Below are positions 5,325-54,595 of a stretch of DNA of 64,000 nt, in pieces. A program made the position numbers and the translations under genes. Source of the DNA: an uncultured Acidobacteriota bacterium (GTDB lineage: Bacteria; Acidobacteriota; Thermoanaerobaculia; Multivoradales; UBA5704); the NCBI GenBank assembly GCA_963732005.1, contig CAVSXT010000005.1, positions 2,057,315-2,121,314 on the forward strand. The letters are read 5' to 3'. The notes below the pieces were generated by a model. That model worked only from the letters and a program-made list of their open reading frames with translations, did no database searches and was not told the origin of the DNA. Numbering within the stretch: the stretch's first letter is position 1; every line of letters starts with the position of its first letter.

Positions 5325-5352
5325 GGTCGTCCCATGCTAACACCAGGCGAGA

Positions 5353-8375: not shown

Positions 8376-8459
8376 ATGTTCTCCTTTTCGGTCGGCGCCG
8401 GTGCGGCGGGGCGCGGGTGGGCCAAGCAGAGCGATCAGATCGTGTCTTGCGCGGATTAT

Positions 8460-8529: not shown

Positions 8530-8580
8530 GATGCGCACGGACCGAGAAGTCGAGGTCGTTGCCGAGAGGAGGCTCGCGAG

Positions 8581-8877: not shown

Positions 8878-8940
8878 GCGGCTCGCCGTGCACCGTGCGG
8901 TGGCAATGCCGTGCCGGAGGGAACGGAAGGAGTTGAGGCG

Positions 8941-31623: not shown

Positions 31624-31832
31624 TCGCCGGACCAGTCGAGGTGCACGAGATCCTCAGGGGCAGCACGCAGATAGTCTCGCGGTGTGAGGCGCTCGATCCT
31701 GCTCGGCGGCTCCTCGCAGACGATCTTGAGCAGCTTGCCCCGCCGCTCGATCTCGACCGGCACACCGGTTTCCAGTACCTGGTCCAGGATGCGGTAGATG
31801 TTCTCGCGCAGCTTCGAGGCCTTGAGTCGCAT
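31611..31832 (-). CDS. Phd/YefM-type antitoxin
   Basis: MRLKASKLRENIYRILDQVLETGVPVEIERRGKLLKIV is typical of Phd/YefM. ATG at the complement of 31830-31832. Confidence 0.75.
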   Translation of the reverse strand: MRLKASKLRENIYRILDQVLETGVPVEIERRGKLLKIVCEEPPSRIERLTPRDYLRAAPEDLVHLDWSGEWRP

Positions 31833-38579: not shown

Positions 38580-39713
38580 TCAGCCGGCAGCGGTCGCTCC
38601 GTCCAGGGCCGCGAGCGCGAAGGCGTAGGCGCCGAGGGCCACGGCGTGGCTGGTGCCGAGGCGCGACAGGCCGACGCCGGTGCGCTTGAGCGGGTCGTGG
38701 AGGACGCGGCGGGCGGAGCCGGGGACGGCGAGCGTCGTCGTGTTACCGGCGAGGAAGGCGCGGCGCTCGGCCTCGTCCTCGAGGTTCCAGGCGGTCAGCT
38801 CGAGGCGTGGCACGTCGCCGCCGTCGAGGCGCTTCAGGCGGCCGTTCAGTTGGCCGACCAGGGCCGGCAGGAAGTGCGGCGCGGCGGCGGCGAGCCCGCC
38901 GCCGACCACCACCAGCCCGTCGAGCAGGGTGAGGGCGTTGGCGATGGCGTCGCCGGCCACCTCGCCGAGGCGGCGAAAGGCCTCGCGCGCCGCCGGCGCG
39001 TCGCCGGGCGTCTGGCCGCGGGCGATGGCGTCGATCGTCTTCGGCTCGGGCGCGGCGGCGAGCGGCAGGCCGGCTGCCTGGGCGTAGGTCCGGCGCACCG
39101 CGCGAAGGCTGGCGCCTTCCTCGGCGAAGCAATCGCCGTCGAGCTTGTTGCGCATCAGCCAGATCTCGCAGGCGGCGCTGTTGTCGCCGGCGTAGAGCTC
39201 ACCGGCGCGCACGATGCCGCCGCCGAAGCCGGTGCCCAGGGTGACGCCGAGGAGGTTGCGGAAGCGCTTCAGGCTGCCGGCAGCCGCCAGGGCGCGGTTG
39301 ACCTCCGGCAGCAGGCCGTGGAGCGCCTCGCCGTAGGTGAAGAGGTCGCCGTCGTTGTTGATGAAGACCGGCACGCCGAAGCGCTCTTCGAGTAGCGGCC
39401 CGAGCGGGACGCCGCCGCGGAAGCCGGGCAGGTTGGGAAGGTCGCCGATGATCCCCGCGGGGTAGTCCGCGGGCCCGGGAAAGGCAAAGGAGAGCGCCGC
39501 CGCGCCGCCGCCGGCCGCGGTCCAGAGGCGGGAGAAGCCCTCGACGATCTGGCCGAGGCAGCGGTCGAGATCGTCGCCGTGGGCGGGCAGGGTGACCGGT
39601 GCGGCGACCTCGCGGTTGCCGGCGATCGCCGAGAAGGTGAGGTTGGTGCCGCCGGCGTCGAGAGTCAGGACGGTGCGGCGGTCTGCCGCGAAGCGGTTGA
39701 GTGGATCCGCCAC
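38580..39713 (-). CDS. ROK-family sugar kinase (glucokinase / N-acetylglucosamine kinase-like)
   Basis: LTLDAGGTNLTFSAI N-terminal ATP-binding motif and the ROK-like core GVTLGTGFGGGIV. Confidence 0.8.
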   Translation of the reverse strand: MADPLNRFAADRRTVLTLDAGGTNLTFSAIAGNREVAAPVTLPAHGDDLDRCLGQIVEGFSRLWTAAGGGAAALSFAFPGPADYPAGIIGDLPNLPGFRGGVPLGPLLEERFGVPVFINNDGDLFTYGEALHGLLPEVNRALAAAGSLKRFRNLLGVTLGTGFGGGIVRAGELYAGDNSAACEIWLMRNKLDGDCFAEEGASLRAVRRTYAQAAGLPLAAAPEPKTIDAIARGQTPGDAPAAREAFRRLGEVAGDAIANALTLLDGLVVVGGGLAAAAPHFLPALVGQLNGRLKRLDGGDVPRLELTAWNLEDEAERRAFLAGNTTTLAVPGSARRVLHDPLKRTGVGLSRLGTSHAVALGAYAFALAALDGATAAG

Positions 39714-39726
39714 CGGGCTGTCTCTC

Positions 39727-40962
39727 CTAGGCCGGTCCGGCGGCGGGCGAGGCAGTCGGCAGCTCCCCCGGGCGCGGCGGGCGGGGCGGGTGCGGTGGTT
39801 GGGCGCCGGCCCCGCGCTGGGCGGCTAGCGCCAGGATGGTGAGGTAGGCGAAGGCGGCGACGGGCACCAGGAACGCCAGCCGCACACCGTGGTGGTCGGC
39901 GACCAGGCCCATGAGCGCCGGCAGCACCGCTCCGCCGACGATCGCCATGCACATCAGGCCGGAGAGCGCGCCGGTCCGCTCGGGGCGGCTTTCGACGGTG
40001 AGCGCGAAGACCAGCGGCCAGACGTTGGCGAAACCCAGGCCGCAGGCGGCGATGCCGGCGAGCGCCAGCGGCCGCGAACCGAGCAGGAGCAGCCCGAGCC
40101 CGCCGAGGCCCAGCAGCGCCGAGACCAGGAAGAAGCGGCGGGCGCCGATGAAGCTCAGCACCGCCGCGCCCAGGAGGCGTCCGGCGGCGAGCGCGAGGAA
40201 GAACAGGCCGGGGCCGAAGCGGGTTGCCGACGAGGCCAGATCCATGTCGAAGGCGCGGGCGAGCAGGGTGGCGAGCCAGGAGTTGAGCCCCACCTCGGCG
40301 CCGACGTAGAGGAAGATGCCGAGCACGGCAAGCGCCACCGGCGGCTGGGCGAGCAGGGCGAGGCTGCTGGCGACGCCGGCCGGGGTCTCGTCGGCGTGGG
40401 ACTCGGCGACCGGCACGGCTGCGACGAGCAAGAGGGTGAGCAGCGTCACGCCGGCGAACACCGGAAAGATGTGGTACCAGGCAAATCCCAGCACCACCAG
40501 CTGCGCCGTGAGGTAAGGACCGGAGATCGAGCCCAGGCTCTTGACGAACTGGGCGAAGGTGAGATTGCGGGCATAGCGCCCCGGGGCGCTGACGTCGCGC
40601 ATGATCGGGTTGCCGGCCACCTGCAGTGCCGCCATGCCGGCGCCGATGAGGAAGATGGCGCCGAGCAGCAGCCCGTAGTGCGCCACGGACAGGCAGGGGA
40701 TCAGCTGCCCGGCGAGCACCACGGCAAGCGACGCCGTCATGAGGAACTTCCTGCCGCGGCGATCGGCGACCACTCCGGCGGGTACCGAGAACAGCGCGAA
40801 GGCGATGAAGCCGAAGAACGGCAGCAGCCCGGCCTGGGCGCCGCTGAGCTGGAACTCCCGCTCCGCGAAGCCGACCAGGGTGCCGACGGCGTCGACGAAC
40901 CCCATGACGAAGAAGCCCAGGAAGATGGGGAGTGTCCGGAATCGCAGGCGACACCTCCGCAA
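39727..40962 (-). CDS. MFS transporter (FucP / glucose-galactose transporter-like)
   Basis: 12-TM MFS topology; FLGFFVMGFVDAVG N-terminal motif. Probable TTG start (complement of 40960-40962), and the start is uncertain. 13 nt upstream of the ROK kinase gene. Confidence 0.7.
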   Translation of the reverse strand: MRRCRLRFRTLPIFLGFFVMGFVDAVGTLVGFAEREFQLSGAQAGLLPFFGFIAFALFSVPAGVVADRRGRKFLMTASLAVVLAGQLIPCLSVAHYGLLLGAIFLIGAGMAALQVAGNPIMRDVSAPGRYARNLTFAQFVKSLGSISGPYLTAQLVVLGFAWYHIFPVFAGVTLLTLLLVAAVPVAESHADETPAGVASSLALLAQPPVALAVLGIFLYVGAEVGLNSWLATLLARAFDMDLASSATRFGPGLFFLALAAGRLLGAAVLSFIGARRFFLVSALLGLGGLGLLLLGSRPLALAGIAACGLGFANVWPLVFALTVESRPERTGALSGLMCMAIVGGAVLPALMGLVADHHGVRLAFLVPVAAFAYLTILALAAQRGAGAQPPHPPRPPRPGELPTASPAAGPA

Positions 40963-41215
40963 AGGTCCGGCGGGAGAGCAGTCTGGATCATACAGGAGGG
41001 GGGTGGGCTGGGAGGGGTGGCGGGGCGGCGGCGGCCCGGGTGCGGGGCCTCGGGATCTCCGGATGCAGCGCCTCGAGGCAGCGGGTTGAGGCAGCGGGTT
41101 GGTTGTGCGTATACTCGGCTCCGCTCCCGGGGAGGGCAGGAGGAGCGGGGATCGGCCCTTTTCCGGCCGTCGCACCCGCAAAGCCCCCGGCGAGTTCTCT
41201 TTGCAAGCCCCAATT

Positions 41216-41302
41216 GGAGGTGTGGCCGAGTGGACAATGGCAGCAGACTGTAAATCTGCCGGGCTAAGCCCTACCTAGGTTCGAATCCTAGCGCCTCCAC
41301 CA
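41216..41302 (+). tRNA. tRNA-Tyr (anticodon GTA), with encoded CCA
   Basis: GGAGGTG acceptor arm paired with CGCCTCC; anticodon loop CTGTAAA; long variable arm CGGGCTAAGCCCTACC; T-arm CTAGG-TTCGAAT-CCTAG; 3' ACCA. Confidence 0.9.
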
Positions 41303-41630
41303 ATGGAATCAATGAATTAGAGCGAGAAGCTGCCGGCTCCATACGCTGCAGTTGGACCAAATCTGGCCACTTAGGAAATTTTGCCGATGGTCTCGAGCGG
41401 TGCATCGGCCGCGGTGGCAAGGTCACCTGGTGGGGGGCCGCATTCCCTTGATGGATCGGGAAGAGTAAGTCGGCGACCATCGCCGGCAGCACCGATAGCC
41501 GACCTCATCGACCGCCGGGACGCGGTGTGCGCAGTGGCGATGCAGCCGGCACTGGAGGGCGGAGGTACCTTCCTGCACGACAAGGTCGCTTGGCGCGCGC
41601 CGCGGGCAAGCGCCGCGGCGCGCGTGGTGG

Positions 41631-42515
41631 TCAGAAGCGAGCAGGGGGACAATGAGGGATCAGCGTGGTAGCGAGCGGCCCGCAATCAGTGACATCGGGC
41701 CACGGGAGCAACGTGCCAGGCGTCGTGCAGAGCCGGTGGAAGTGAAGGAAGTGCATCTCAGCCTGCGCGGGCCCCCCGGTTGAAGCACCGAGCGTCGAGA
41801 GCGGGATGTTGACGAGCCAGGCCTCGACATCGTTGCCTCCTGTCGTCAAGGTGATGTTGCCTTTGTTGCTCTGGAAGACCACCTGCTGGCCAGCCGAGAT
41901 CGTTATGGTCACCTTGACGACGTCGGCAATAGCCCTCCTGGTAACGACGCTGATGTTCTTGTTCATCATGTCGGCATAGTACCAACGGACGATCAAACCG
42001 CTGCCCGAAGCGAGCTGATCCGTCGACCAGGTGCCGTTCATGACCCACAATCGAGCCGAAGCGAGGCCGGCGGGGAAGGCGTTAGCCGTGACCTCCGGCA
42101 GCAGCGGCTGTCCAGGATTCGCGTCGGCCATGTTGCAGGTCCAGCCGAAATGGGTTTTGGGTTCGGCGGGAGACAGGCACGGTCCTACCACGGGAGCAGG
42201 CAAGGGAGTCGCTGCTGCACTTACCGGCGACACTCCGATGTCCTCCTCATCGAGAGGGAAGGCGATGAGAGCATCCTTGGCGAGATTCTGCGCCGGTGGA
42301 ATGTAGAGCCAGTTCTGGCGTGCAGTGGCAATCTGCCCCGGCGGCAGGGCTGGCAGGCACAGCATGGGGGTGTGGCGGTCCGGCGAGCCGATCGGAAGGG
42401 GTTGGCCGGAGGTGTCGTAATCGTAGGCATTGGGCAAGACGATGACGACGCTCTGGCCGGCGGCTGGCACGCACGCGCAGAGTCCGGTCACGTAGAGGTT
42501 CAGATTAAAGGTCAT
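41631..42515 (-). CDS. Hypothetical protein translationally coupled to the CHAT-domain protein (ATGA overlap)
   Basis: ATG (complement of 42513-42515) preceded by AAGGAGG at 7-nt spacing. The CHAT ORF stop overlaps this start. No family recognised (MTFNLNLYVTGLCACVPAAGQSVVIVLPNAY...). Confidence 0.6.
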   Translation of the reverse strand: MTFNLNLYVTGLCACVPAAGQSVVIVLPNAYDYDTSGQPLPIGSPDRHTPMLCLPALPPGQIATARQNWLYIPPAQNLAKDALIAFPLDEEDIGVSPVSAAATPLPAPVVGPCLSPAEPKTHFGWTCNMADANPGQPLLPEVTANAFPAGLASARLWVMNGTWSTDQLASGSGLIVRWYYADMMNKNISVVTRRAIADVVKVTITISAGQQVVFQSNKGNITLTTGGNDVEAWLVNIPLSTLGASTGGPAQAEMHFLHFHRLCTTPGTLLPWPDVTDCGPLATTLIPHCPPARF

Positions 42516-45500
42516 CGCGAGATCCTCCTTTCGGTGGTGGCCACCTGGAACAATTGAAATCCGCCCCACGCTGCGACCTCGTGCAATACGGGGTCGCGTC
42601 CGTGCAGCAGCTCAAGTTGGGTGTTGCGAAGAGCCGCGGCCGGGCCTTCGGCGGAGCGGAGGCGGCGATAGAAGCGTGCGAAAAACTGCTCGGCGGAGGC
42701 GTCGTCGACGCTTCCCAGCGCCGCCACTACGGCAGGTACGCCGGTGGCTAGAAAGGCCTCGACCAGGCCGCGCGAGCCTTCGGTATCTTGGCTGCCGGCG
42801 GCCCGGCAGGAGGAAAGCACCACGAGTCGCGTGCGGCCGGCCGCAAGGCGTCGAATGTCGCCGGCGCTCAAGGCCACCTTGTCCTCAGTGCTGGCCCGCG
42901 CGAGGGGCAGGAGAGAGAGGTCCGGCTGCTGGTCATCGGCGAGCACATGCGCGGCCAAGTGCACGATTGCAAATCGACCGAAACCGCGGGAGAACGCGGC
43001 GGCGGTTGCGTCCTGGCCGAGGCTGAGAACTGAGTTGGGGCGGTAGAGATCGGCGATCGCAGTGGCCTCTCGCCGGGCGCTGGGGAGCGGTTCCAGAAAG
43101 GAGAAGATCGCTGCGTCCAGACGAGGGTCTCCCAGCACGAAGGCGCTTGCGAGCGCCTGCCCCGAAGTTGCACCCCTCGGATCGGCCAATGCCGCGCTGG
43201 GTACGATCACCACTTCATGGTCGGCGACGAGCGGTTGTCCTGCCGGGCCGGCCAGTGCCGCGAAGGGGACGCGGCGCAGGCTCTTGTCAGGGGAGACGAG
43301 CAATGTGGTGACACCGAAAATGTCAGGAGCGATGGGATCGATCAAGACCGAAGAGAGCTTGCGCAGTGCCTCACGCGCGTCCTGCGGGCCAGAGTCCAGG
43401 AATTGCACCCAGGTTTCTAGGTCCGCGGCCGCGATGGACTCGATGTGGAAGCGAATGCGACCCTTGGTCATCACCCAGATTAGCAGCTGGTGAGGGAGCA
43501 CGGCGAACTCGACGAGAGCCCGTGCGCGATCCAGGCGATGCGTCAGGCCAGCGTCGGCCGCGGGGAGGTGGAGGGTGTCGCGCAGGGCGCGGGCGCGCGC
43601 TTCGTCGGCAATCGCAAAGAGGGCCGCCGGGGTCGCATGGGCCTCGATCGAGGTGGACATCCACTGGTCATAGACGGTGCGCGACTGAGAGAGGAAGGCA
43701 GTGCGAGACTCTCCAGCGTCGAGATGGACGCGTTGCGCCTCGACCTCCAGTAGAGCCTTGTGCAGCGACGCGGCTGCCGCAGCGCTATCGTGATTCGCGG
43801 TTTGGGCGAAGGCGAGCTCGGTCAGAAAATGGATCAGGCGCACCGCATCGTGCAAGGCTTGTGCGACGGCGGTTGCGCGCGCCAGCTCGGTAGCGGCTTT
43901 CACAGGAGCGGTTTTGAGGAGCAGATGCCCGCGCTCGGTCCAGATGTCCGCCAGCCATTGTCGGCGAGAGTCCGGATCGGCAAGCGCCGCGGCGGCGCCT
44001 TCAGCGGCCTTGAGATCCTGTAGAGCGCTCGCCTTACGACCGAGCGCCGCCCGTGCCCGTGCGCGGGTCAAGAGAGCGTACGCAGCTCCCGCCTGCCCGA
44101 GCGAGGGGCCCGATCGCTCAACGAGGCGGTCGGCGAACGCCAGCGCAGCGTGGGGAAGATTTGAGTCCTGCGCTGCCTGGCAAAGAGTCGCATAGGCGAC
44201 GATGAGGCGCCGCGGGTCGCCCGCCTGTACCGCAAGGCGACTACCCTGGTATAGCCAGGGCCATGCTGCAGGCCGTTGACCCAGGAGCCACAGGCTCTCG
44301 TAAAGGTTGAGAGCCACGCCCGCGCGCTCGGCCAGCGCACCCGAGTGCTGCGCAAGCACTTGGGCGTCATGGTAGTCGCGCAAGCAGTCGCCATTGCGTC
44401 CGGAATGGCTGAGGCTGGCACCTCGCAGCCAGAGCAGGCGCAGGCGGAGCGACGGGTATCGCCCGTGTAGGTCGCGATCGAGGGCCGTCAGGATGGTTAT
44501 GGCGCTGCCGAAATGGCCGCTCTGATAGGCGCAGAGGCCGCGGCCATACTCTGCCCACCAGGCGAGTGCCGGGACCGTGCGAGCCAGCTGCCGTGCAGCA
44601 GGCACAAGCAGCGCCTCCCCTCGTTTGCCCTCGTTGACCTGACAGGTTGTCAAGCCTGCCGCCACCTGGCTTACGCTGCGGGCAAGCGAAGGCAGGCGGC
44701 GAGGCTCTGCCTGGCGCAGGAGCGCCGTCGCCTCGACAAGCATGGAATCCGAGCAGCAGGCGGCTACACTCTGGCCGATACGCGTCATGAGGTCGAGGAG
44801 CCTGGCGGCAGCAGCGTCTTGGCCGCGCTGCACGGCTTCGGCCCAGCGGGGCAGCAGCCGCTCCTCGGCGAGCTTGCGCATCTCGCGCGGGAAGCTGGAG
44901 ATGAGGACGTTCGCTTCGGCGCAGGGCAATGGACAGGCCTCGAATCGCGCGAGTGCTGAGGGCCAGGCCGCCGTTGGATCCCCGGCGAGGCCTCGTGCGC
45001 CGACAGCGCCGTCGGTGAGCGAGGGTGACACCGCTTCCGGAGCAGCGAGGAAAGCGGCGTGCAGTGCGAGAGTCCAGTTGACTCTTGCCTCGGGCAGGAG
45101 AGGCGAGAGTTCGAGCGCTGTCTCGATTGCATCGAGCGCTGCAAGGCGCCCGGGGCCGTCCAACGCCGTGAGGTGAGTGAGATAAAACGCTCCGAGGTCA
45201 TTCAGGATGCACGCGTTGCGCGGACTCATGGCTGCGGCGTGTCTGAGAGCTGCCTCGGCCAGACGGTGATGTCCAAGTACCGCGCGCGCGACGCCAAGGT
45301 CGGCTAGCGCGTCCGCGCTTGGCGCTTGTGTCGCCCGCCGCTCGATGGCGTGTAGGGCGGCGATCTCGGAGCCGGTGGCAGGTGCCACGAGCGCGCCGGC
45401 GGCGAGCGGTTCAGCGAGCACCCCGCCAGCGAACCAAGGCCCTGAAGCCAGCGGACGAGCAAGGGCATCTCGGAGTCGTGCCCGCTCGGTGGAGCAGCTC

Positions 45501-45544
45501 GACCAGGGGGCGACAGTGACCTGCCTGCAGGCAGTGCCGGGCAC
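42512..45544 (-). CDS. CHAT-domain (caspase-like peptidase) protein with a long helical/TPR-like N-terminal region
   Basis: C-terminal CHAT domain IVHLAAHVL...LVVLSSCRAAGS...GLVEAFLATGVPAVVAALGSVDD with a His/Cys dyad. GTG start at the ORF track position; the true start is uncertain. Confidence 0.75.
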   Translation of the reverse strand: MPGTACRQVTVAPWSSCSTERARLRDALARPLASGPWFAGGVLAEPLAAGALVAPATGSEIAALHAIERRATQAPSADALADLGVARAVLGHHRLAEAALRHAAAMSPRNACILNDLGAFYLTHLTALDGPGRLAALDAIETALELSPLLPEARVNWTLALHAAFLAAPEAVSPSLTDGAVGARGLAGDPTAAWPSALARFEACPLPCAEANVLISSFPREMRKLAEERLLPRWAEAVQRGQDAAAARLLDLMTRIGQSVAACCSDSMLVEATALLRQAEPRRLPSLARSVSQVAAGLTTCQVNEGKRGEALLVPAARQLARTVPALAWWAEYGRGLCAYQSGHFGSAITILTALDRDLHGRYPSLRLRLLWLRGASLSHSGRNGDCLRDYHDAQVLAQHSGALAERAGVALNLYESLWLLGQRPAAWPWLYQGSRLAVQAGDPRRLIVAYATLCQAAQDSNLPHAALAFADRLVERSGPSLGQAGAAYALLTRARARAALGRKASALQDLKAAEGAAAALADPDSRRQWLADIWTERGHLLLKTAPVKAATELARATAVAQALHDAVRLIHFLTELAFAQTANHDSAAAAASLHKALLEVEAQRVHLDAGESRTAFLSQSRTVYDQWMSTSIEAHATPAALFAIADEARARALRDTLHLPAADAGLTHRLDRARALVEFAVLPHQLLIWVMTKGRIRFHIESIAAADLETWVQFLDSGPQDAREALRKLSSVLIDPIAPDIFGVTTLLVSPDKSLRRVPFAALAGPAGQPLVADHEVVIVPSAALADPRGATSGQALASAFVLGDPRLDAAIFSFLEPLPSARREATAIADLYRPNSVLSLGQDATAAAFSRGFGRFAIVHLAAHVLADDQQPDLSLLPLARASTEDKVALSAGDIRRLAAGRTRLVVLSSCRAAGSQDTEGSRGLVEAFLATGVPAVVAALGSVDDASAEQFFARFYRRLRSAEGPAAALRNTQLELLHGRDPVLHEVAAWGGFQLFQVATTERRISR

Positions 45545-45732
45545 CGCAAATGCCGCAAGCAGACAGACCCAGCGAATGAGACTGGTCAGATCAGCCTCCT
45601 GTAAAACGACAGCCCGAGTCGCTGCGCGGAGCGGAAGGGGCGGAGATGTTTGGCGTCCACCGTTCTTCTCCTCTGACGTGCTTAGACGGCCGTGCCGGCG
45701 TTTTTTCGCGGGTGCGGCGCGCAGACCTCTGA

Positions 45733-47199
45733 CTACGGCTCCCTGACAACGAAAAAGAACGGGTCAATGGATGGCTGCACGGGGTAACCTGCGAGGTCCG
45801 TCAGGACATGCCGTTTCCAGTCGACGTTACGTAAATACCTGACCTTGACGTGCTTGGGGATCTTGGTGGGGTCAGGGTTGTTATAGGCGGAGAAGATGCC
45901 GTAGAAATCCTTCCCGACTGCGATCAGGTGGTCGTAATCGCCGAGCGTGTTGTTGCCTTGGCAGGAGCCTGGAACATCCTGCGTGTTCGCCAGCATTTCG
46001 TGGACGGCTGGCGCGGTAGCGAAGCGGTTGTCCGAGATCTCGATGTGGGTTTCCCAGTAGTGGCTACCAGGAGTGCCGGTAAGCTTCTGGTAGAGGAAGC
46101 CGACCTGCCCCAGGTTGTTGACCGCAAGCGCCGGATTGGTAGCAGCGACGACCTGCCGTAGATCATGACTCCATCGGGCACCGCCGTCATACGAGGAGCG
46201 GAGATGCAGAGTGAAGGTGTCAGCGGTGGTGCCGTCAGCCCAGGCGATGTATAAAATCTTGCTCTTGCCTCGCCGCGGATCGACGGCGAGCGCGAGGTTG
46301 CCGCGGACCCTCTGAGTGCCGAGATACAGGTTGGGGAGCGAGATAGCGACAGCGCAAGCCGCGCAGACGCCGGGGACACCTCCCGCGCTAATTGCCTGAT
46401 AGGGATTCGATGCAGCCCCCCAGGCGTCGTCTCTGACGACGATCACATCGGCGATCGCGGGAGGTATGCACGACCTCGGATGCAAGAAGGCCAGGTACAC
46501 AGTGCCGTTAGGATGAATCGCCGGACGAATGGAAGTGCCGTCCATGCACCCGAGGGTCCGGGCATCGAGAGATAGGGGGCCGACAAAGTTGTCCAGCGGC
46601 GGGGCTTTCGCCGCGTCGAGTGATTGCTCGACGGCCGCTGACCGGTAGTAAGGTGCATCGAGGTTGTTGTAACCTACGTAAACGCGGTCGACGCCAGGGT
46701 TCAGGGCGGTCGCCTCCTCGACGTCGGGCTGGTCGCCGTCTTGGATCTGGATGAGATCGGTCATCGCGCCAGGCGCCAGTAAGTTGACCTGGCGTAGCAG
46801 GTCGACCTTCTTGTTGTCGTTACGCAGGATGCCCGCGTAAAGAACGCCAGAGGTTTGGGAAAATCGCAAGGTGATGTCGCACATGGCGGACCCGCCCGGC
46901 AAGACGCCCGGCAAGACAACGTTGAGAAGCCAGGTCATGCCGCCGTCGGTCGAGACGAAGATCGGCGCCTCGCTCGATTCGAGAGGGTCGGGTGTTAGGG
47001 CAGATGCTGCCATCTGAAGAGGGTTTGCCGGGTTGACCGCGATGCTCGGCTCGGCGTCGCAGTTGGATTCTCCACTTAGAGACCGCGGGATGACGTCGAC
47101 CACCTGGATCGTCGGAAGATGAGCACAGTGCAGCCCGAGCAGACTCAGAAGGAGGAGCAACCAGTTCTGCGGTGCCGCGAGAGGCGAGGGCCTCGTCAT
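45733..47199 (-). CDS. Secreted BNR/Asp-box repeat protein (sialidase-fold-like)
   Basis: Signal peptide MTRPSPLAAPQNWLLLLLSLLGLHCAH and Asp-box motifs STDGGMTW and SYDGGARW. Confidence 0.65.
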   Translation of the reverse strand: MTRPSPLAAPQNWLLLLLSLLGLHCAHLPTIQVVDVIPRSLSGESNCDAEPSIAVNPANPLQMAASALTPDPLESSEAPIFVSTDGGMTWLLNVVLPGVLPGGSAMCDITLRFSQTSGVLYAGILRNDNKKVDLLRQVNLLAPGAMTDLIQIQDGDQPDVEEATALNPGVDRVYVGYNNLDAPYYRSAAVEQSLDAAKAPPLDNFVGPLSLDARTLGCMDGTSIRPAIHPNGTVYLAFLHPRSCIPPAIADVIVVRDDAWGAASNPYQAISAGGVPGVCAACAVAISLPNLYLGTQRVRGNLALAVDPRRGKSKILYIAWADGTTADTFTLHLRSSYDGGARWSHDLRQVVAATNPALAVNNLGQVGFLYQKLTGTPGSHYWETHIEISDNRFATAPAVHEMLANTQDVPGSCQGNNTLGDYDHLIAVGKDFYGIFSAYNNPDPTKIPKHVKVRYLRNVDWKRHVLTDLAGYPVQPSIDPFFFVVREP

Positions 47200-47250
47200 G
47201 ATGATCTCTCGTGTCACGAAAGTGCGTCGGGCAGAAGGCCGGCGTGTCGA

Positions 47251-48078
47251 TCAGTTGGTCTGAACCGCGATGATCGAGCGGATCTGCTCGAGCCGGTCCA
47301 GCGACAGGACATCGAGTTCGTCAAGGGCCGTCAGTCCGAGTAGGTGCAGCACCGGCATCCCTCTCTCCTTTTGGTCGCGCTGCAAGATCAGGATCTGCAC
47401 GGTTCCTGTGCGCAACTTGGGTGAGGCCCGCCACAGCAAGTCCGTGCTGTTGGGAAAGAGGACGTGCAAGGCGGACGGCGGCTCGCCCATAAGGACGGAG
47501 TGGACTTCGATCGTAGCCACCCACCAATCGGGGTCGTGCTCAGCGATGAGGGGCGGGGCGCCGTATGACGACGCGGGGCAGGTCGCCTTGACGGTACCTA
47601 CGACGATAAGCTGGGCGCGGGCGACGCGATCGCGGAGCTGGGCGGCGAACGCCCTGTTCTCGGCATCGCGGATCCGCGCTGGAAGGCTCGCGCCCTCCGT
47701 GGGGTTCATGTGGTATATCTCAACTACGGCCAAGGTGTCGCCGAAGAGCCAGCTGCGAGTCAAGAAGATCGCGGCATCTCCGATTTTGAGGAGCGAGTCG
47801 CCCTTGAGCCTCACGGTGACGCGTTTTCCTTTCAGGGAATAGTATGGCCCCGCCACTGGCCGATAAACTTGGTCTACTTGGATCACCGCTGTACGAGAGT
47901 CGACGGGGAAGGCCGGTTCGGTCGCAGTTCCAATTGCCTTCACGGTGCCTTGGAATATGAACTGCGACCGGCTCAGCAGCGCATCAAGACCTTGGGCGCC
48001 CGCGAGCGCGGAAAGAGAAAGAGCCAAGGTGCCGAGGAGCGAGAGCTGGCGTGCTGTTGAGCAGCGTGACACCGCCAT
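47251..48078 (-). CDS. Secreted hypothetical protein
   Basis: Internal ATG followed by the signal peptide MAVSRCSTARQLSLLGTLALSLSALAGAQG. No family recognised. Confidence 0.5.
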   Translation of the reverse strand: MAVSRCSTARQLSLLGTLALSLSALAGAQGLDALLSRSQFIFQGTVKAIGTATEPAFPVDSRTAVIQVDQVYRPVAGPYYSLKGKRVTVRLKGDSLLKIGDAAIFLTRSWLFGDTLAVVEIYHMNPTEGASLPARIRDAENRAFAAQLRDRVARAQLIVVGTVKATCPASSYGAPPLIAEHDPDWWVATIEVHSVLMGEPPSALHVLFPNSTDLLWRASPKLRTGTVQILILQRDQKERGMPVLHLLGLTALDELDVLSLDRLEQIRSIIAVQTN

Positions 48079-48398
48079 CGTTCGCCCCCGCGCTCGACTC
48101 CTGGATTGTGGGGCACCCATGCGAGTCTCCGATGGCGACGGCCGTGAGTGTCGCGGGGCCGGAGAGGGGCGGATGCTCAGTCTGCCCCGATGGTGGAAGA
48201 GTCTACGAGGCAGTCCGACTGAGGGCAAGCATTTTGATGCATTGCGATATCGACAAATGAGGTGGTTCTTACAGTCCGGATCGGCGGTGGAGCAGGAAGG
48301 CGAGGCTGCCATAGGCGCTCACTTCGATCGCTCAAGGAGGCGATCGATGAAGAAATGCGGCAGCGTGCACGGCGACGCCATTTGCGAGGAAAATAACC

Positions 48399-48782
48399 AT
48401 GCCCGACAGAACCAAGAAGACCCCAAGAGCGAACACCACTGTGAAGAGCGAAGAGCGGAACCTGTTTCGCGAATTGATGTCTGGCGTGAAGGCGATGCAG
48501 CAACACCGCGAAGGGCGACTCACCTTGCGGAGCCACCACGTCCTGCCGATCACGCTTCCTCCCTTGAATCCGCAGCTCGTGCGCGACACGCGTGAAGCGT
48601 TGCACATGTCACGACAGGTGTTTGCGTTGAAGCTGGGCGTGAAGCCCCGCACGCTCGAACGCTGGGAGCAAGGACGTAGCAAACCAAACGAGCAGGCGGC
48701 AGCACTGATCTGGTTGGTGCGGAAATATCCGGACACTCTCGAGCGTATCGAGTCCCTGAGTGTTGGTGAGAGCAAGGCCTGA
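48399..48782 (+). CDS. XRE-family HTH protein, COG2944/HigA-MqsA-like antitoxin-type regulator (no cognate toxin identified)
   Basis: TREALHMSRQVFALKLGVKPRTLERWEQGRSKPNEQAAALIWLVRKYPDTLERI is characteristic of this antitoxin family. The start is uncertain (no Shine-Dalgarno sequence at 48399). Confidence 0.6.
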   Translation: MPDRTKKTPRANTTVKSEERNLFRELMSGVKAMQQHREGRLTLRSHHVLPITLPPLNPQLVRDTREALHMSRQVFALKLGVKPRTLERWEQGRSKPNEQAAALIWLVRKYPDTLERIESLSVGESKA

Positions 48783-48820
48783 ATGAGTGAGGGTTGCGGG
48801 CATGAGCGCGGCCGTGGCCT

Positions 48821-49879
48821 CTACGCCAGGATCTGCTCGATGCAGGCTGCCGCGCCGGGCAGCTGCCGGTACTCGAGGCAGCGTGACCGCTGGCGCTCGC
48901 GCAGCTCTTCCAGGTCTTGACGCAACGCACCGAACGCTGCGGCGGCCGCCTCCGGGTTGGCGCACCGCAGGTGGCGAAACTCGAGGGGCACGGGGTCGGG
49001 CGGCAGGACCGCGCCAGCGGCGACACGCAGCAGATTTCCGGGGACCGGGCCGGGCCTGCCCGGGCGCGGCAGGGCGGCCGGATCCACCAGAGCGAGCGGG
49101 ACGCCCATGGCCGCCGCGCGAGCGGCCAGGACGGAGCGGCAGTTGGCGGTGATCAGGAGGTCGTGGCGCGCGACCTCGGCCTCGAGCTCGCCGTAGGGGA
49201 GGTCCTCTCGGATGACCCGCGCCTGGCGAAGAAACGGCAGGGAGGGGTCGAGCGGGCTCAGCACACTGAGCTCGACGTCGAGCTGGGAAAGACCTTGGAA
49301 GGCCAGGCGCTCGGCGGCCGGAAATTCCGGAAAGGCATGCATCCAGGGCGCGGCCGCCCACAGCCAGCGGTGGTGGCGCCGCGGGCGGCCCGCCCTCGCG
49401 CCGGCCGAGAACACGAGCTGTTCCGCACGGGGCGCCTCGCCGTAGGTGAAGGGCCGCGGCAGGATGACCGCGACGCCGGGCGGGAGCGGGCAGACGAAGG
49501 AATCGCCGCAAGGATCCAGCGCCGCGATGCGGACGCCGGCCGCCTGCCAGAGCGCCAGCAGCGCCTGGGTCAGCTGGGGGAAGATCGGCACCTGGAAGAA
49601 GGCGCGAAAGCTCGCCAGCACGATGAGGTCGGGAGCACGATCCATCGGGCGCACCTCGACGTCGAGGCCGCTCTGCCCGCGCTGCTTTTCGAGCAGGGCA
49701 AACCCGCGCAGGCGGCGCAGCAGACCGTCGACCCGGGGATGCGGGTCCCAGGCGCGGAGCAGCTCCGCATAACGGATCCGAAAACGTTCCCTGGACAAGC
49801 CCCGCGCCAGCCGGATGAGCGCCGTCAGCTCGCCGATGCTCCCCGCCATGAGGTGAGTGCTGGTCGAGGGGAAGACCAT
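48821..49879 (-). CDS. Putative GT-B fold glycosyltransferase (MurG/GT28/MGT-like)
   Basis: Two-lobe pattern: an N-terminal domain (MVFPSTSTHLMAGSIGELTALIRLARGL) and a C-terminal nucleotide-sugar lobe (DLLITANCRSVLAARAAAMGVPLALV). Weak assignment. Confidence 0.45.
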   Translation of the reverse strand: MVFPSTSTHLMAGSIGELTALIRLARGLSRERFRIRYAELLRAWDPHPRVDGLLRRLRGFALLEKQRGQSGLDVEVRPMDRAPDLIVLASFRAFFQVPIFPQLTQALLALWQAAGVRIAALDPCGDSFVCPLPPGVAVILPRPFTYGEAPRAEQLVFSAGARAGRPRRHHRWLWAAAPWMHAFPEFPAAERLAFQGLSQLDVELSVLSPLDPSLPFLRQARVIREDLPYGELEAEVARHDLLITANCRSVLAARAAAMGVPLALVDPAALPRPGRPGPVPGNLLRVAAGAVLPPDPVPLEFRHLRCANPEAAAAAFGALRQDLEELRERQRSRCLEYRQLPGAAACIEQILA

Positions 49880-49907
49880 GAGCACCCACGGACGGCGTCG
49901 CCGGCCC

Positions 49908-50729
49908 TCAGGAGATCGTCGTGACATGCGGTTGGAGCAGACCTGCGATCGTCCCCTCGAGCGCCAGCAGCGGCGGCCGGCCCGCCTCGCGATGCCGCCG
50001 CCGCGCCTCGACCAGCGAGGCCAGCAGCGCATCCTCGGCGGTGTTGAGATTGAGATGGATCTCGCGAAACTCGAGGGCCTCGGCCCGCGCCCCGCGAGCG
50101 AGCAGCCACGACAGCAGATCGCCGAGATGCGGGTGGCGCCGCACCAGGTCGGGCGGCACGCCGTCGAGCAGCCCGGCGCCGAATCCCACGCAACCGCACC
50201 AGCGGGTGCTGCCGGCCAGCTGGCCGGCGGCCGGCTTCTCGCGCACGCTCAGCACGCGGCCGGCAGCGTCGGTCACCACGTTGCACAGGATCCTGTGCGA
50301 CTCCGAGTCGCGCACGACGCCCACCAGCAGATCGGGCGCCGCCGCCCGCCCGGCCAGCGCGCGGAACGGCGACGAGTCTTCGTAGTACTCGTCGCCGAGG
50401 AGCACGAGCGCCGCATCTCCTGCCAGCCACGGCGCCAGCGACAGCAGGCCCAGGATCGGACCGAGGGGCTCGGCTTCGGCCACGCAGGAGATGGTCACTC
50501 CCGTCGGCGGCGTGTAGAGGGCGAGCGCCGAGCGCACGCTGCCGGCGAAGGTCGCCGAGGTCGCAACCAGGATCTCGGCGACGCCCGCCTCGGCACACTG
50601 CTCGATCTGGCGCATCAGGAGCGGCTGGTCGAAGACCGGCAGCAGGCACTTGGGCAGCACCTGGCCCAGGGTGCCGAGGCGGGAGCCCCTGCCCCCGGCC
50701 AGGATGACCGCCCGCGGATACGGGACCAT
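49908..50729 (-). CDS. Sugar-1-phosphate nucleotidylyltransferase (NTP_transferase, RmlA/GlmU-like)
   Basis: RAVILAGGRGSRLGTLGQVLPKCLLPV signature. ATG at the complement of 50727-50729 (the TTG called in the track lies 9 nt upstream). Confidence 0.8.
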   Translation of the reverse strand: MVPYPRAVILAGGRGSRLGTLGQVLPKCLLPVFDQPLLMRQIEQCAEAGVAEILVATSATFAGSVRSALALYTPPTGVTISCVAEAEPLGPILGLLSLAPWLAGDAALVLLGDEYYEDSSPFRALAGRAAAPDLLVGVVRDSESHRILCNVVTDAAGRVLSVREKPAAGQLAGSTRWCGCVGFGAGLLDGVPPDLVRRHPHLGDLLSWLLARGARAEALEFREIHLNLNTAEDALLASLVEARRRHREAGRPPLLALEGTIAGLLQPHVTTIS

Positions 50730-50843
50730 GGGCGCCAACGGTAGCCGCTGCTCGCTCCCGCCGCAAGTCCGGGGAAATGCTAAGGTGCCGGCGTACGCGG
50801 CGATTTCGCGGCGATCCTGCCGCTACCCGCGACGCAATGTTCC

Positions 50844-51773
50844 ATGAGGTCGACGCATGGAGGACGGCGAGCTGGTCGAGGTCGCTGCCGAAGGGCGCCC
50901 GGCTCGCCTGCCCGGCGAGGACCACAGCGGCCATGGCAGCCTGGTCAGCCCGGCTATTTCGCCGCGCTGAAGATCCCGCTGCTCGCCGGCCGGACCTTCA
51001 GCGAGCGCGACGACCGCAAGAGCCTGCCGGTGACCATCCTTGGCCGTTTCGCGGCGGCCCGCCTCTGGCCGGGACAGAATGCGGTCGGCCGGCGCGTCAC
51101 CTTCGGCCGGATCCCGAGCCGGCCGGACGCGCCATGGTGGACGGTGATTGGAGTGGTGGGCGACGTGCGCGACACCGACCTCGCCGTCGCGCCGGAGATG
51201 GAGGTCTACATCCCGCAGCTGCAGCTTCCGGTCGGGACCTCGACGCTGGTCGTGCGCGCCGCGGGCGACCCGCGGAGACTGGTCGGACCGATCCGCCGCG
51301 CCATCCGGAGGCTCGACGCGGACCTGCCGCTCGACAAGGTGCAGACCCTGGCGCGGGTCGTCTCGTCGGCGCTCGCCGGCCGGCGCGTCAGGACCTGCCT
51401 GCTGGGCATCCTTGCCGCCCTGGCGCTGGTGCTGGCGGTCGTCGGGGTCTACGCGCTGGTCAGCGGCTCGGTCGGCGAGCGGGTGCACGAGATCGGCATC
51501 CGCATGGCCCTGGGCGCCAGGGGCGACGAGGTGGTGCGAATGATCGTTCGGCAGGGGATGCGGCTGGTCGCCGCCGGCCTGCTGCTCGGGCTGGCGGGTG
51601 CCTATGCTTTCAGCCGGCTGCTGGCAGGCCAGGTCTACGAGGTCGCGGTCGCGGACCCGTGGACCTACCTCGGCGCGGCGGGGTTTCTCGCGGCCTTTGC
51701 CTTGCTCGCCAACTGGCTGCCGGCGCGGCGGGCGAGCCGCGTCGATGCGCTCGAGGCAATGCGCTGCGAGTGA
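50844..51773 (+). pseudogene. Truncated FtsX/MacB-type ABC permease: only the C-terminal roughly 270 aa; the N-terminal TM helix and most of the periplasmic domain are missing
   Basis: The protein-like sequence starts abruptly at ...PGYFAALKIPLLAGRTFSERDD and continues through the FtsX 3-TM bundle (VHEIGIRMALGARGDEVVRMIV...). The first 37 codons of the ORF are Arg/Gly junk. There is no upstream partner. Confidence 0.55.
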
Positions 51774-51785
51774 AGACAAGCAGCG

Positions 51786-51830
51786 CCGGCCCGCCCTCGA
51801 TCCCGGAGGCGGGAGCGGGAGCGGGCCGGC
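51786..51830. terminator. GC-rich hairpin (GCCGGCCCGC ... GCGGGCCGGC) between convergent transcription units; a possible bidirectional terminator
   Basis: 10-bp perfect inverted repeat read directly. No clear U-tract, so the call is tentative. Confidence 0.3.
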
Positions 51831-51905
51831 GGTCTGCCGTTGCAATGGGCCGTTGCCGCGTCTGCAGGCGGTTCCTTCAACGAAGCCGCTGCGGTACGGT
51901 GCGGG

Positions 51906-52052
51906 TCAGGGCTTGCAGGGTTCGGTGTGCCCCGAGGGCGTGAGGTTGCAGGAGCCCCCGGCGATCTCCGCCAGATCCAGGTCTCTCGCCGGGGTGATCA
52001 GATTCAGCACGGTCTCTTTCGACAGGACCAACTGCTTCTTCCTTTTCTTCAC
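51906..52052 (-). CDS. Small ORF (48 aa) resembling a RiPP/bacteriocin precursor peptide: Lys-rich N-terminus, double-glycine-type leader (DLDLAEIAGG) and a Cys/Ser/Thr/Pro-rich 15-aa core (SCNLTPSGHTEPCKP)
   Basis: Hand translation of the minus strand: GTG(52052) AAG AAA AGG ... TGA(51906-51908) gives MKKRKKQLVLSKETVLNLITPARDLDLAEIAGGSCNLTPSGHTEPCKP. AAAGGGG Shine-Dalgarno sequence 5 nt upstream. An AT-rich promoter-like stretch (TTCAAC...TATAGCATAAG) lies immediately upstream. Not in the ORF track (below 60 aa). Confidence 0.55.
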   Translation of the reverse strand: MKKRKKQLVLSKETVLNLITPARDLDLAEIAGGSCNLTPSGHTEPCKP

Positions 52053-52114
52053 GTTCGCCCCTTTCTTATGCTATACGACTGTTGAACTAGCCTCTTATAC
52101 ATCGTTTCCATGGT

Positions 52115-53482
52115 TCAGGACAAGGGGATCGGCAAGGTGGAGATCAGTAGCGCCCGATCCCAGGCCGGATCGACGTGAGAGACAGCCGCGAGGAGAGCCA
52201 GTCCGATGCCCGTGGCGCCCCTGGCGAACCCGGGCTCGTCCAACCACTCGCCACGATAGGTGATGCGAAAGCCGGCAATGCCGACGCCAGGCGTGCGCTG
52301 GGCGAGCGCCCGGTCGAGCCAGCGGCGCGCGGCCTCGGCGAAGGCCGTCTCGCCGGTCGCCTGATAGAGCCGGTTGAAGACGTGGCCGATACCGGCCGGC
52401 CCGTCGGAGAGCCCGGCGCCGGCGCCGCCGGCCATGCCGGGATGGCCGGGATGGCGGGCGGCCGCGGCGAGCGCCACGCGCCGGCCGGCGGCTTCCCAGG
52501 CCGGCTCGCCGGCGCCACGCGCCGCCAGCAGCAGGCTGGCGGCGATGCCGAGATCCCCGACCCGCCAGGCGAGTGGGCTACCCCGCGCCGCGGCGCCGGG
52601 GAAGTGGAACTGAGGAAAGCGGTAGCCGCTCTCGGGAGGCTGCTCGCGCGCCAGCAACCAGGAGACCGTGGCCGCGAGCAGCGGCCGCGCCGCGGGGGCG
52701 GCGACACCGGCCTGACAGGCGGCACCCAGCAGCGCGATGACGCCCGCGATCCCCTGGCCCATGCCGAGGACATAGGCGCCCTGCGGGAGCTCGCCGCGGA
52801 ATGGAGGAGGCAGGTCGCCCACCGGGCTGAAGAAGGCGGCACCTTCCGGATGGCGCTCGGCGCGGCGCGCCAGCTGGGTGACCACCGCCTCCAAGCATTG
52901 CGCCGCGTTAGGCCGCGGCAGCCGCTCGAGCGCGTAGACGCCCAGCCCCACCAGGCCGGTGAAGAGGTCGTAAGCGCCCTCCCAGGACGAGCGCGAAAGG
53001 CCACGCAGGAGGACCTCGTCCACCTCGCGGTTGCCGTCCTCCTCGTCCGCGAACAGTCGCCCAGCCAGGTGGGCCGCGGCCCAGGCGATCCCCGGAAATC
53101 CGAGGTACAGGCTGGTGCCCAGGCGCAGGCCGGCGGCGGCCTCGGTGGCCTGGTCGAGCAGGTCGATGGCGACGTCGGCATGGGCATCGCCGGCGCCGTG
53201 AAGCGCAAGGTAGGCATGGAGGAGGCACTGCCCCACGCGGCCGCTGCTCAGCGCGTTCTCCCAGATCGGAACGCCCTCGGGCCGGAGGTTGCGGGGAAAG
53301 CAGCTGACGCCGCGGGCGGTGACGGCGGCGATGTCGCCGGCCGCCGCCAGCGCTCGGGTCGCGGCCTCGCCGGCCAGGAGGGGGCTCCAGGGGAGGCTCA
53401 CGCCCGGATCATGTGGGACCCGGCGGAGCGGGTCAATCGTCGCCGCCAGCGCCCTGCTCTCCCCGCGACGGGGGCGGGGCAC
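52115..53482 (-). CDS. LanC-like (lanthionine synthetase C-like, alpha/alpha-toroid with GxxG repeats) protein lacking the canonical Zn-ligand Cys/His motifs
   Basis: Repeated GxxG-containing helices (SLYLGFPGIAWAAAHL, DLFTGLVGLGVYALE, GMGQGIAGVIALLGAA, LSDGPAGIGHVFNRLYQATGE). Where LanC has SWCHG and GLCHG, this protein has GMGQG and LSDGPAG. Start uncertain: GTG at 53482 chosen; the ATG at 53638 would overlap the divergent gene by 110 nt. Confidence 0.55.
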   Translation of the reverse strand: MPRPRRGESRALAATIDPLRRVPHDPGVSLPWSPLLAGEAATRALAAAGDIAAVTARGVSCFPRNLRPEGVPIWENALSSGRVGQCLLHAYLALHGAGDAHADVAIDLLDQATEAAAGLRLGTSLYLGFPGIAWAAAHLAGRLFADEEDGNREVDEVLLRGLSRSSWEGAYDLFTGLVGLGVYALERLPRPNAAQCLEAVVTQLARRAERHPEGAAFFSPVGDLPPPFRGELPQGAYVLGMGQGIAGVIALLGAACQAGVAAPAARPLLAATVSWLLAREQPPESGYRFPQFHFPGAAARGSPLAWRVGDLGIAASLLLAARGAGEPAWEAAGRRVALAAAARHPGHPGMAGGAGAGLSDGPAGIGHVFNRLYQATGETAFAEAARRWLDRALAQRTPGVGIAGFRITYRGEWLDEPGFARGATGIGLALLAAVSHVDPAWDRALLISTLPIPLS

Positions 53483-53527
53483 TCGGGGCAGCAAGTAGAC
53501 TAGAAGCTCCGACTGCGAGGCCAGACC

Positions 53528-54595
53528 ATGGATGAGAAACGGCTGGATTGGAGCACTTCGTACGTGGTTCCCGCGAGCCTTCGCTTCCGGCTGACGCCTG
53601 CCGGAAAGCTCCGCGCGGATGCCGAGTGGGCTCCCCATGTGATGACCGAGCAGGCCGAGGTGGCAGCCGATCAGGTCGAGCTGCTGCTCGGTTTCGCGAG
53701 CCCCCTGGTGGCCGAGGCGGCGTTCGCGCGCGCGGCGGAGACCTGGGACCTCGACCGCGAGACCTACGGCCTGCTGCTCGAGACCTGGATCGCCCGCGGC
53801 CTGCTGCGGCCGGTCGACGCCGGCGCCTACGCGACCACGCGCCTGGCGCTGTTCGCCGAGGCGGTCGCGGAAAAGGCCGCGACTGCATCTCCGGTCTTCC
53901 CGCTGCGCTCGCACTTCGCCATGCAGCAGCCGGTGCTGTTCGTGCCCGGGCTGGGCACCCGCGAGATCCACGACGGCCGGCGCTTTCCCTGGGTCGCCGT
54001 CCTCGAGACCGCCTTCCCGCTCATCCAGGCCGAATTCATCGCGCTTCTCGCCAGCTCCGACTTCTTGCGGGTCAACCCCGACTTCACCCATCAGGGAGAA
54101 TGGGCGGCGGCCTACCTCTGGGCTCACGGCGAGAGAATCGACGCGATCTGCCGCCAGTGTCCGGAAACCACCCGCCTGTTGACCTCGATCCCCGGAGTCT
54201 CGCAATTCGGCCTGGCGATGTTCTCGGCCCTCGCCCCGCACACCCGGATCGCGCCGCACCATGGCGTCACCAACGCGATCCTGCGCTGCCAGCTGCCGCT
54301 AAGGGTGCCGCCCGGCTGCAAGCTGAAGGTCGGAGATCACGAGCTCGAGCAGCAGGAAGGGCGCTGCATCGTCTTCGACGACTCCTTCCTGCATTCGGCC
54401 TGGAACGATAGCGACCAGGCGCGCTTCGTCCTGCTGTTCGACTTCTTCCACCCCGACCTGACCGGCGACGAGATCGAGTATCTGGCGCGGCTGCCGGCGA
54501 AGCAGGCCATGGCCAAGCACCACCTCGCCCAGGCGGTCGGTGGCCCGAAGGCGGAGTGGGCGAAGCAAGGGCCCGCCGGCGGCCCTGCCGGGTGA
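53528..54595 (+). CDS. Aspartyl/asparaginyl beta-hydroxylase family (Fe(II)/2-oxoglutarate oxygenase) protein with a roughly 150-aa N-terminal extension
   Basis: C-terminal KLKVGDHELEQQEGRCIVFDDSFLHSAWNDSDQARFVLLFDFFHP matches Asp/Asn beta-hydroxylase (LpxO/AspH). The N-terminal 150 aa are of unknown function. Confidence 0.75.
   Translation: MDEKRLDWSTSYVVPASLRFRLTPAGKLRADAEWAPHVMTEQAEVAADQVELLLGFASPLVAEAAFARAAETWDLDRETYGLLLETWIARGLLRPVDAGAYATTRLALFAEAVAEKAATASPVFPLRSHFAMQQPVLFVPGLGTREIHDGRRFPWVAVLETAFPLIQAEFIALLASSDFLRVNPDFTHQGEWAAAYLWAHGERIDAICRQCPETTRLLTSIPGVSQFGLAMFSALAPHTRIAPHHGVTNAILRCQLPLRVPPGCKLKVGDHELEQQEGRCIVFDDSFLHSAWNDSDQARFVLLFDFFHPDLTGDEIEYLARLPAKQAMAKHHLAQAVGGPKAEWAKQGPAGGPAG

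Follow-up and report, generated by a model that had tools for sequence, protein, structure and literature searches.

A tRNA-Tyr gene in the genome of an uncultured acidobacterium of the class Thermoanaerobaculia is followed by DNA of different composition, which raises the question of where that DNA came from, how it entered and what it encodes. The window analyzed here is a stretch of 64 kb (contig CAVSXT010000005.1; all positions below are those of the window unless a contig is named). A first-pass annotation had described, by eye, the tRNA gene and a lower-GC block of about 7.5 kb beyond it, and had proposed that the block is a genomic island. The block holds a four-gene cassette (a CHAT protease; p294, a 294-aa protein; a BNR protein; and p275, a secreted 275-aa protein) and an orphan antitoxin gene. 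The answer that we consider probable is that the region 41315–48816 is horizontally acquired, strain-specific cargo in a replacement hotspot next to the tRNA gene, between two core blocks of a Thermoanaerobaculia chromosome.

Composition and junctions of the block

The tRNA-Tyr gene (41216–41302, plus strand; anticodon GTA) was found by ARAGORN and by Rfam (RF00005, 57.8 bits), and the Rfam search over 40.5–49.5 kb returned nothing else. Composition was compared within the window by a 1-kb GC profile, by the GC content of third codon positions (GC3) and by tetranucleotide distance. The GC content of 41315–48816 is 64.3%, versus 72.8% for the remainder of the window. The 7.5-kb segment with the lowest GC content in the entire 64 kb begins at 41251, and nowhere else in the window does composition deviate as strongly as in the block. 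In the 1-kb profile the block has values of 0.61–0.69 and its flanks 0.70–0.79. GC3 is 0.73–0.76 in the five genes of the block, against a median of 0.89 (range 0.76–0.95) in the 35 other open reading frames (ORFs; Mann-Whitney p = 6e-6), and the tetranucleotide distance from the window average is maximal at the block, reaching z = 3.1. The block ends abruptly on the right – GC is 0.58–0.65 until about 48.8 kb and 0.72–0.78 directly beyond. Both the tRNA gene and the lower GC of the DNA after it, previously judged by eye, were borne out by these computed profiles.

Related loci were found by way of the MFS and ROK genes on the left flank, and came from soil metagenome-assembled genomes (MAGs) of Thermoanaerobaculia (Acidobacteriota) and from metagenome contigs. 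The MFS transporter gene (39727–41181, minus strand; Pfam MFS_1; GC3 0.90) is paired with the ROK gene beyond it (38580–39713), and the pair is present in all of the Thermoanaerobaculia relatives. By blastn, the left flank is 93–95% identical in nucleotide sequence to the contigs L092 and L081. The tRNA-Tyr gene lies beside the MFS gene in five relatives (L003, L012, L081, L092 and L098), and 12–14 nucleotides past the CCA end of the tRNA (ATGGAATCAAT..) are kept in all relatives. Homology to the window then ends at 41314 in L092, 41319 in L098, 41320 in L012 and 41324 in L081 and L003, which is 12–22 nucleotides past the CCA. These blastn end points, with the alignment of the relatives, place the left junction within 41303–41324.

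The right junction was placed at 48808–48817 by a three-way alignment, in which homology to L092 stops at 48807 and homology of the right flank to the contig L167 starts at 48817. Positions 642–7965 of L167 match 54613–48817 of the window at about 94% nucleotide identity, after which the two diverge. The right flank begins with a gene for a conserved hypothetical protein of 352 aa (48821–49879, minus strand), 91% identical in amino acid sequence to its homologue on L167 (P0269), followed by a nucleotidyltransferase gene (49908–50738) and a truncated MacB/FtsX permease gene; GC3 in this flank is 0.86–0.90. The variable segment defined by the junction alignments is about 7.49 kb long and coincides with the compositional block. 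It starts after the tRNA gene, at about 41315–41325, and its end, previously put at 48782, lies at about 48808–48816.

The block is missing from the tRNA-Tyr locus of every relative that is readable past the tRNA. In L092, the tRNA is followed by a gene for a 591-aa PT-HINT/TRADD-like-N/CHAT protein and then by an intact HigB2-HigA2 pair (GC 53–60%). In L098, it is followed by an insertion sequence (IS)-like helix-turn-helix (HTH) fragment, a sigma-54 activator and an AraC regulator (GC 60–62%), and in L012 by a LysR gene and redox genes. On the other side, L167 has beyond the right flank a region of 46–52% GC that encodes a bSEFIR protein. The cargoes of these four contigs are unrelated to the window block and to one another. 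PADLOC models matched by the cargo of the relatives include bSEFIR (E 8e-102), chat (E 5e-22), and NucC-like and TIR models; the four cassette proteins of the window had no PADLOC match. L081 and L003 diverge from the window no more than 22 nucleotides from the tRNA and share another sequence past it, which has no counterpart in the window; both contigs end about 120–137 nucleotides beyond the tRNA. With a non-uniform compositional profile and other DNA at the tRNA-Tyr locus of related genomes, the proposal of a genomic island was upheld. No empty site was found among 160 related loci, and none of the contigs joins tRNA-Tyr to the right flank or has both flanks.

Two of these relatives show further peculiarities near the tRNA. 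L081 and L003 differ in their divergence (94% and 82% nucleotide identity, respectively), yet in the sequence that they share (1–141 of L081 and 1–158 of L003) an ORF whose end reads MASSPPPPPRLLPAGATSCRVGFAPTGNRRLCTAH stops just before the tRNA gene. This shared sequence may be an older state of the locus. In L092, the MFS and ROK genes, which are neighbors in the window, are separated by a 4.3-kb insert (4880–9226 of that contig; GC 47–60%). It encodes a DUF6602/NucC-like nuclease, an IS1595 transposase, a TIR protein and an RHH protein. The MFS gene of L092 gives three separate segments in the alignment and has probably been disrupted.

The cassette itself was found at another place in a related genome. 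The contig L161, from the same MAG as L003, has the same four genes in the same order; its positions 4544–10867 match 48019–41631 of the window at 68% nucleotide identity, and the proteins are 56–66% identical. There the cassette sits between a MazE/PIN pair and uvrC-uvrB, not beside tRNA-Tyr, and its GC3 is 0.70–0.76, versus 0.91–0.96 for uvrC and uvrB. The cassettes have diverged more than the core of the same two genomes (68% versus 82% nucleotide identity). The low-GC stretch of L161 (2710–11060) also includes an uncharacterized 161-aa gene and the MazE/PIN pair, so that the cassette lies beside a toxin-antitoxin module in both genomes.

The toxin remnant and the origin of the arrangement

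The sole part of the block in common with a close relative is 48329–48807, which is 94.6% identical in nucleotide sequence to L092, the same as core genes. It contains an antitoxin gene (48399–48782, plus strand; 127 aa; HTH_3, 31.1 bits versus a Pfam cut-off of 23; GC3 0.73) and, before it, a remnant of 22 codons (48331–48396, plus strand). The antitoxin matches V. cholerae HigA-2 (PDB 5J9I, 5JAA) over residues 19–119 at E 2e-23, and is 96% identical in amino acid sequence (94.6% in nucleotide sequence) to its counterpart in L092. There, higA2 is preceded by an intact 132-aa toxin ORF that matches the structures of V. cholerae HigB-2 at E 5e-25. The remnant in the window, which reads SLKEAIDEEMRQRARRRHLRGK before its stop codon and has in-frame stops upstream, aligns to the end of this ORF, and homology to L092 begins inside the toxin gene. 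The earlier description of an antitoxin with no toxin partner is correct in that no intact toxin is present, but a toxin gene of the higB2 type has left its 3’ end behind. Its placement near COG2944/MqsA was not sustained. The scores against the MqsA models PF15731 (23.0 bits, cut-off 30) and TIGR03830 (36.5, cut-off 61.8) fall short and involve the HTH part only, and the N-terminal 55 residues have no CxxC pair and hence no such zinc-binding domain; the protein is instead a HigA2 homologue.

That higA2 is as similar to its L092 counterpart as the core genes are suggests that the toxin-antitoxin module was inherited vertically, and a higB2 gene that is truncated in the window and intact in L092 marks the arrangement in the window as derived. 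The history that we propose starts from two core blocks, with the ROK, MFS and tRNA-Tyr genes on the left and the genes for the 352-aa protein, the nucleotidyltransferase and the MacB-like permease on the right. At this site, higB2-higA2 would already have been present in the ancestor that the window shares with its closest relative. In the lineage of the window, the four-gene cassette would then have replaced everything from the tRNA flank to the middle of higB2, leaving a 22-codon stump of the toxin gene and an orphan higA2. The rearrangement took away the 5’ three-quarters of higB2 along with its promoter, and the HigA2 that was retained probably serves now only as a DNA-binding repressor or an anti-addiction factor. 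The cassette lacks an integrase, a transposase and an att repeat, and the simplest explanation of its arrival is therefore that incoming DNA recombined with the chromosome. Conserved sequence in the flank next to the tRNA may have anchored that DNA, with an illegitimate join within higB2 at the other end. The loci of the relatives, each with one shared flank, would be allelic with the window.

Entry could instead have been site-specific, at the 3’ end of tRNA-Tyr, if the block were a classical tRNA-targeting integrative island or a prophage remnant that has lost its integrase and distal att site. Such an element would be expected directly beside a tRNA, as here; the foreign low-GC DNA starts at the same point, 12–22 nucleotides past the tRNA, in five independent relatives, as it would at a reused attB; L098 has a transposase-like HTH fragment beside the tRNA; and tRNA loci are common landing sites of mobile genetic elements (PMC10121019). 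However, scans of all block ORFs against Pfam, NCBIfam and PADLOC found no integrase, recombinase or transposase domain, and integrase, recombinase and excisionase domains were likewise missing from the complete tRNA-to-higA2 interval of L092 and from 3.2–4.7 kb past the tRNA in L012 and L098. Domain scans of the readable sequence of L092, L098 and L012 found no recombinase adjoining the tRNA. The window has no tRNA-derived repeat anywhere: the last 25 nucleotides of the tRNA have no other copy in it at up to 3 mismatches, and a check of all tRNA k-mers of at least 11 nucleotides gave no 13-mer in common between the tRNA and the rest of the window. The two ends of the block share no repeat of at least 12 nucleotides. 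Taken together, these searches gave nothing beyond 9–12-mers at chance level. The missing integrase and the missing direct repeat of the tRNA 3’ end, both reported earlier by eye, were confirmed by these searches. In addition, the L161 cassette adjoins uvrC rather than a tRNA, and on the right the break falls within a toxin gene rather than at an att site. We regard an integrative origin as unlikely; of the earlier suggestion of an old, degraded island, the island stands, but a hotspot of the replacement type, with no integrase beside the tRNA in four loci, is a better fit than degradation.

It is also conceivable that nothing was acquired – that the block is ancestral, that the relatives lost or replaced it, and that its lower GC reflects constraint on particular genes. 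The higA2 gene has a low GC3 (0.73) and yet was apparently inherited vertically (94.6% nucleotide identity to L092), which means that low GC3 alone is no proof of recent transfer, and synteny to the right of the MFS gene is generally poor across the family. A native block is nevertheless very improbable, given that the truncated higB2 marks the arrangement as derived, that a related genome has the cassette elsewhere, again with an atypical composition, that every relative has different DNA at the junction and not a clean deletion, and that p294 is too rare to be a core gene of the lineage. An error of assembly or binning, by which a block from another population was joined at the tRNA, is scarcely credible. 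Several contigs of relatives (L081, L003) do break within about 140 nucleotides of the tRNA, where assemblers struggle, but the window is part of a 2.98-Mb contig, a separate Logan contig begins inside the tRNA and crosses the entire block as far as the genes of the right flank, all in the same order, and the closest relative has the higA2 module of the block at an identity like that of the core.

Replacement at a hotspot remains the reading that we favor, and several points weigh against it. None of the contigs from relatives spans both flanks, and the assignment of the window, L092 and L167 to the same locus is based on one flank each. Past higA2, 106 nucleotides of L092 are unlike the right flank of the window, and a simple swap does not fully describe that locus. 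In more distant relatives (L082, L083 and others), the MFS gene has neither the tRNA nor the genes of the right flank beside it; in place of a hotspot, synteny that is lost here in general would be a partial explanation. The proposed recombination would leave no testable signature in the sequence, and both of the assemblies that hold the junctions may share one read set. As to cargo of the defense type, none of the proteins encoded in the window block matches a PADLOC model, and two of the four cassette proteins are secreted, which is atypical for phage defense.

The cassette genes and other features of the window

All four cassette genes are read in the direction of the tRNA gene. The CHAT (caspase-like) protease is a protein of 1010 aa (42512–45544, minus strand) in which PF12770 matches residues 725–998 at E 5.8e-54, with a score of 183.9 bits versus a cut-off of 24. 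Its catalytic motifs are intact (IVHLAAHV with H866, and VVLSSCRA with C913), and its long N-terminal region is helical and TPR-like. It is 66% identical to the homologue on L161, and has no match to a PADLOC model or to a sequence in the PDB. The stop of the CHAT gene is overlapped by 4 nucleotides by the start of its partner gene, which encodes p294, a beta protein rich in cysteine and histidine (41631–42515, minus strand).

No Pfam model covers the family of p294, and no sequence in the PDB matches it. Among 5.8 billion proteins, a word-indexed search found just three of this type, and a profile search gave 147 family representatives; no copy was found in plasmid and phage collections. Ten residues are invariant in the family (G11, L12, H48, C113, H255, P271, C278, P287, C289 and P290), and C13 is nearly so. 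The fold, predicted with confidence by AlphaFold2 (AF2) from an alignment of 48 sequences, has no structural neighbor among the solved structures of the PDB.

In all six contexts examined (the window, L161, L165, L166, L169/L170 and L171), a CHAT gene lies directly upstream. The homologues in the other contexts are 27–62% identical to p294, the highest value being that of the L161 copy (62%). The contexts other than the window and L161 have a third gene after the pair (L165 2939–4072, L166 8937–10034, L169 1921–3012 and L171 7031–9076) with weak similarity to C39-like or S8-like peptidases. In three of them it encodes a protein of 365–377 aa, mutually homologous and weakly like Peptidase_C39_2, and in one it is S8-like. 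The pair in the window is a variant without this gene.

The CHAT protease and p294, whose genes are translationally coupled, would form a protease with its substrate or effector, or a protease with its regulator, of the kind found in conflict and defense. Because sister strains hold recognized defense genes at the same junctions, the pair is a candidate immune or conflict module. That it is a previously undescribed protease-based conflict or anti-phage system, an allele of the hotspot interchangeable with the bSEFIR and TRADD-N/CHAT alleles, is a tentative suggestion that we put forward with some doubt. Three known arrangements were considered and rejected for the pair. A gasdermin-plus-protease system is not indicated, as p294 has neither a PADLOC match nor a structural neighbor in the PDB, and the same two results dismiss p294 as Csx30. 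The type III-E CRISPR Craspase (Csx29) was set aside since the neighboring genes encode no Cas domains and there is no repeat array in 41150–53000.

The other two cassette genes encode secreted proteins. The first is a probable BNR/Asp-box beta-propeller of a sialidase-like family (488 aa; 45733–47199, minus strand) with a signal-like hydrophobic N-terminus and two SxDxGxxW motifs. Its family has at least 752 homologues; 33 of 40 members match PF02012 and 7 match PF13088, and the family profile matches sialidase structures weakly (E 0.005–0.02). The protein in the window itself is below every Pfam threshold, and the name given to it in the first-pass annotation is therefore supported by its Asp-box motifs and its family rather than by a match of its own. 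The second, p275 (47251–48078, minus strand), has an N-terminus resembling a signal peptide, and no family was matched in domain and profile searches. Homologues of p275 precede BNR genes in L161 (56% identity), in L164 (39%, E 2e-58) and in one further contig, and the pairing occurs in unrelated contigs that have no CHAT gene, such as L164. The pair would seem to be a separate, widespread extracytoplasmic module that travels with CHAT-p294 in this lineage.

The cassette is bordered by two non-coding segments. On the left, the tail of the insert (41325–41630), downstream of the p294 gene, contains a terminator-like hairpin on the minus strand (41471–41485), which came from a consensus scan that performed no better than chance, and an ORF of 96 aa with no Pfam match. 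On the right, a unique spacer (48079–48328) separates the cassette from the toxin remnant. Neither L092 nor L161 has a sequence homologous to this spacer, in which the promoters for the cassette operon and for higA2 presumably lie. Scans of the block for promoters and terminators gave nothing above chance.

Several features outside the block were also recorded. Relative to L167 (4405–5918), the window lacks about 1.5 kb at 50788–50859, which in L167 encodes the start and the first approximately 500 codons of a duplicated MacB/FtsX permease of 806 aa; the FtsX ORF at 50844–51773, which lies 2 kb beyond the right end of the island, is thus a 5’-truncated remnant. Further right (52115–54595), a gene for a 715-aa LanC-like protein overlaps one for an Asp/Asn beta-hydroxylase on the other strand; both are conserved in L167 and L168, and they may be a peptide-modification locus. 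Milder low-GC stretches are found at 1–4.7 kb, 31–32 kb and 35–38.5 kb. The left end of the window (1–4700; GC 65–68%, GC3 0.77–0.85) contains a gene for a large DUF1156/HmaB-like DNA methyltransferase (258–2714, minus strand; PADLOC HmaB E 4e-21, DUF1156_MTase E 1e-18), and may be part of another defense island that runs off the window. A PIN-domain gene (31234–31653, minus strand) in a local GC dip (66% GC, GC3 0.76) is kept at 97% amino acid identity in L081, and is therefore not strain-specific.

Comparison with known systems

As an island, the locus is ordinary: it adds a case from uncultured soil Acidobacteriota (Thermoanaerobaculia) to the known integrase-free hotspots beside tRNA genes. 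Each of the two junctions is placed to within about 10 nucleotides, the truncated toxin gene is a clear molecular scar, and the locus illustrates how the replacement of cargo can lead to an orphan antitoxin. Its value lies in the cargo – a CHAT-associated family of 294-aa proteins without known family or fold, in a hotspot that has defense genes in relatives.

The nearest parallels are the core defense hotspots of P. aeruginosa, in which cDHS1 is flanked by tRNA-Pro and cDHS2 by ssrA, each strain has unrelated cassettes, and movement by recombination through the conserved flanks, without scars of mobile genetic elements, has been proposed (PMC10250203). The locus described here resembles them in its core flanks that include a tRNA, its short and unrelated cassettes in sister strains, its lower GC, its lack of consistent mobility genes, and the cargo of its relatives (bSEFIR, a CHAT-type protein, a NucC-like nuclease and a TIR protein). 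It differs in that it is documented by single-flank metagenome contigs of an uncultured acidobacterial lineage and not by hundreds of closed genomes, and in that the cargo of the window matches no catalogued defense system and includes two secreted proteins. In E. coli too, tRNA loci are frequent landing sites of mobile genetic elements (PMC10121019). With tRNA-linked integrative and pathogenicity islands, the block has in common its position directly 3’ of a tRNA, its atypical composition and its variable presence among relatives; unlike them, it has no integrase and no tRNA-derived repeat, and one of its junctions lies in a truncated toxin gene.

Comparison with HigB2-HigA2 of V. cholerae (PDB 5J9I, 5JAA, 5JA8, 8A0X) concerns mainly the intact pair of L092, in which the toxin gene likewise comes first and its stop codon and the start of the antitoxin gene are 4 nucleotides apart. 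The window differs from both, with only the last 22 codons of the toxin and without the native promoter upstream of higB2. The CHAT protease, for its part, resembles the TPR-CHAT proteases, such as Csx29 of Craspase and the gasdermin-activating CHAT or caspase-like enzymes, in its helical-repeat N-terminus, its C-terminal CHAT domain and its His/Cys dyad. As in those systems, a small partner gene adjoins the protease gene and may, by analogy, encode its substrate. Unlike in those systems, the protease gene has neither Cas7-11/gRAMP genes nor a CRISPR array in its vicinity, and the partner is neither a gasdermin nor Csx30.

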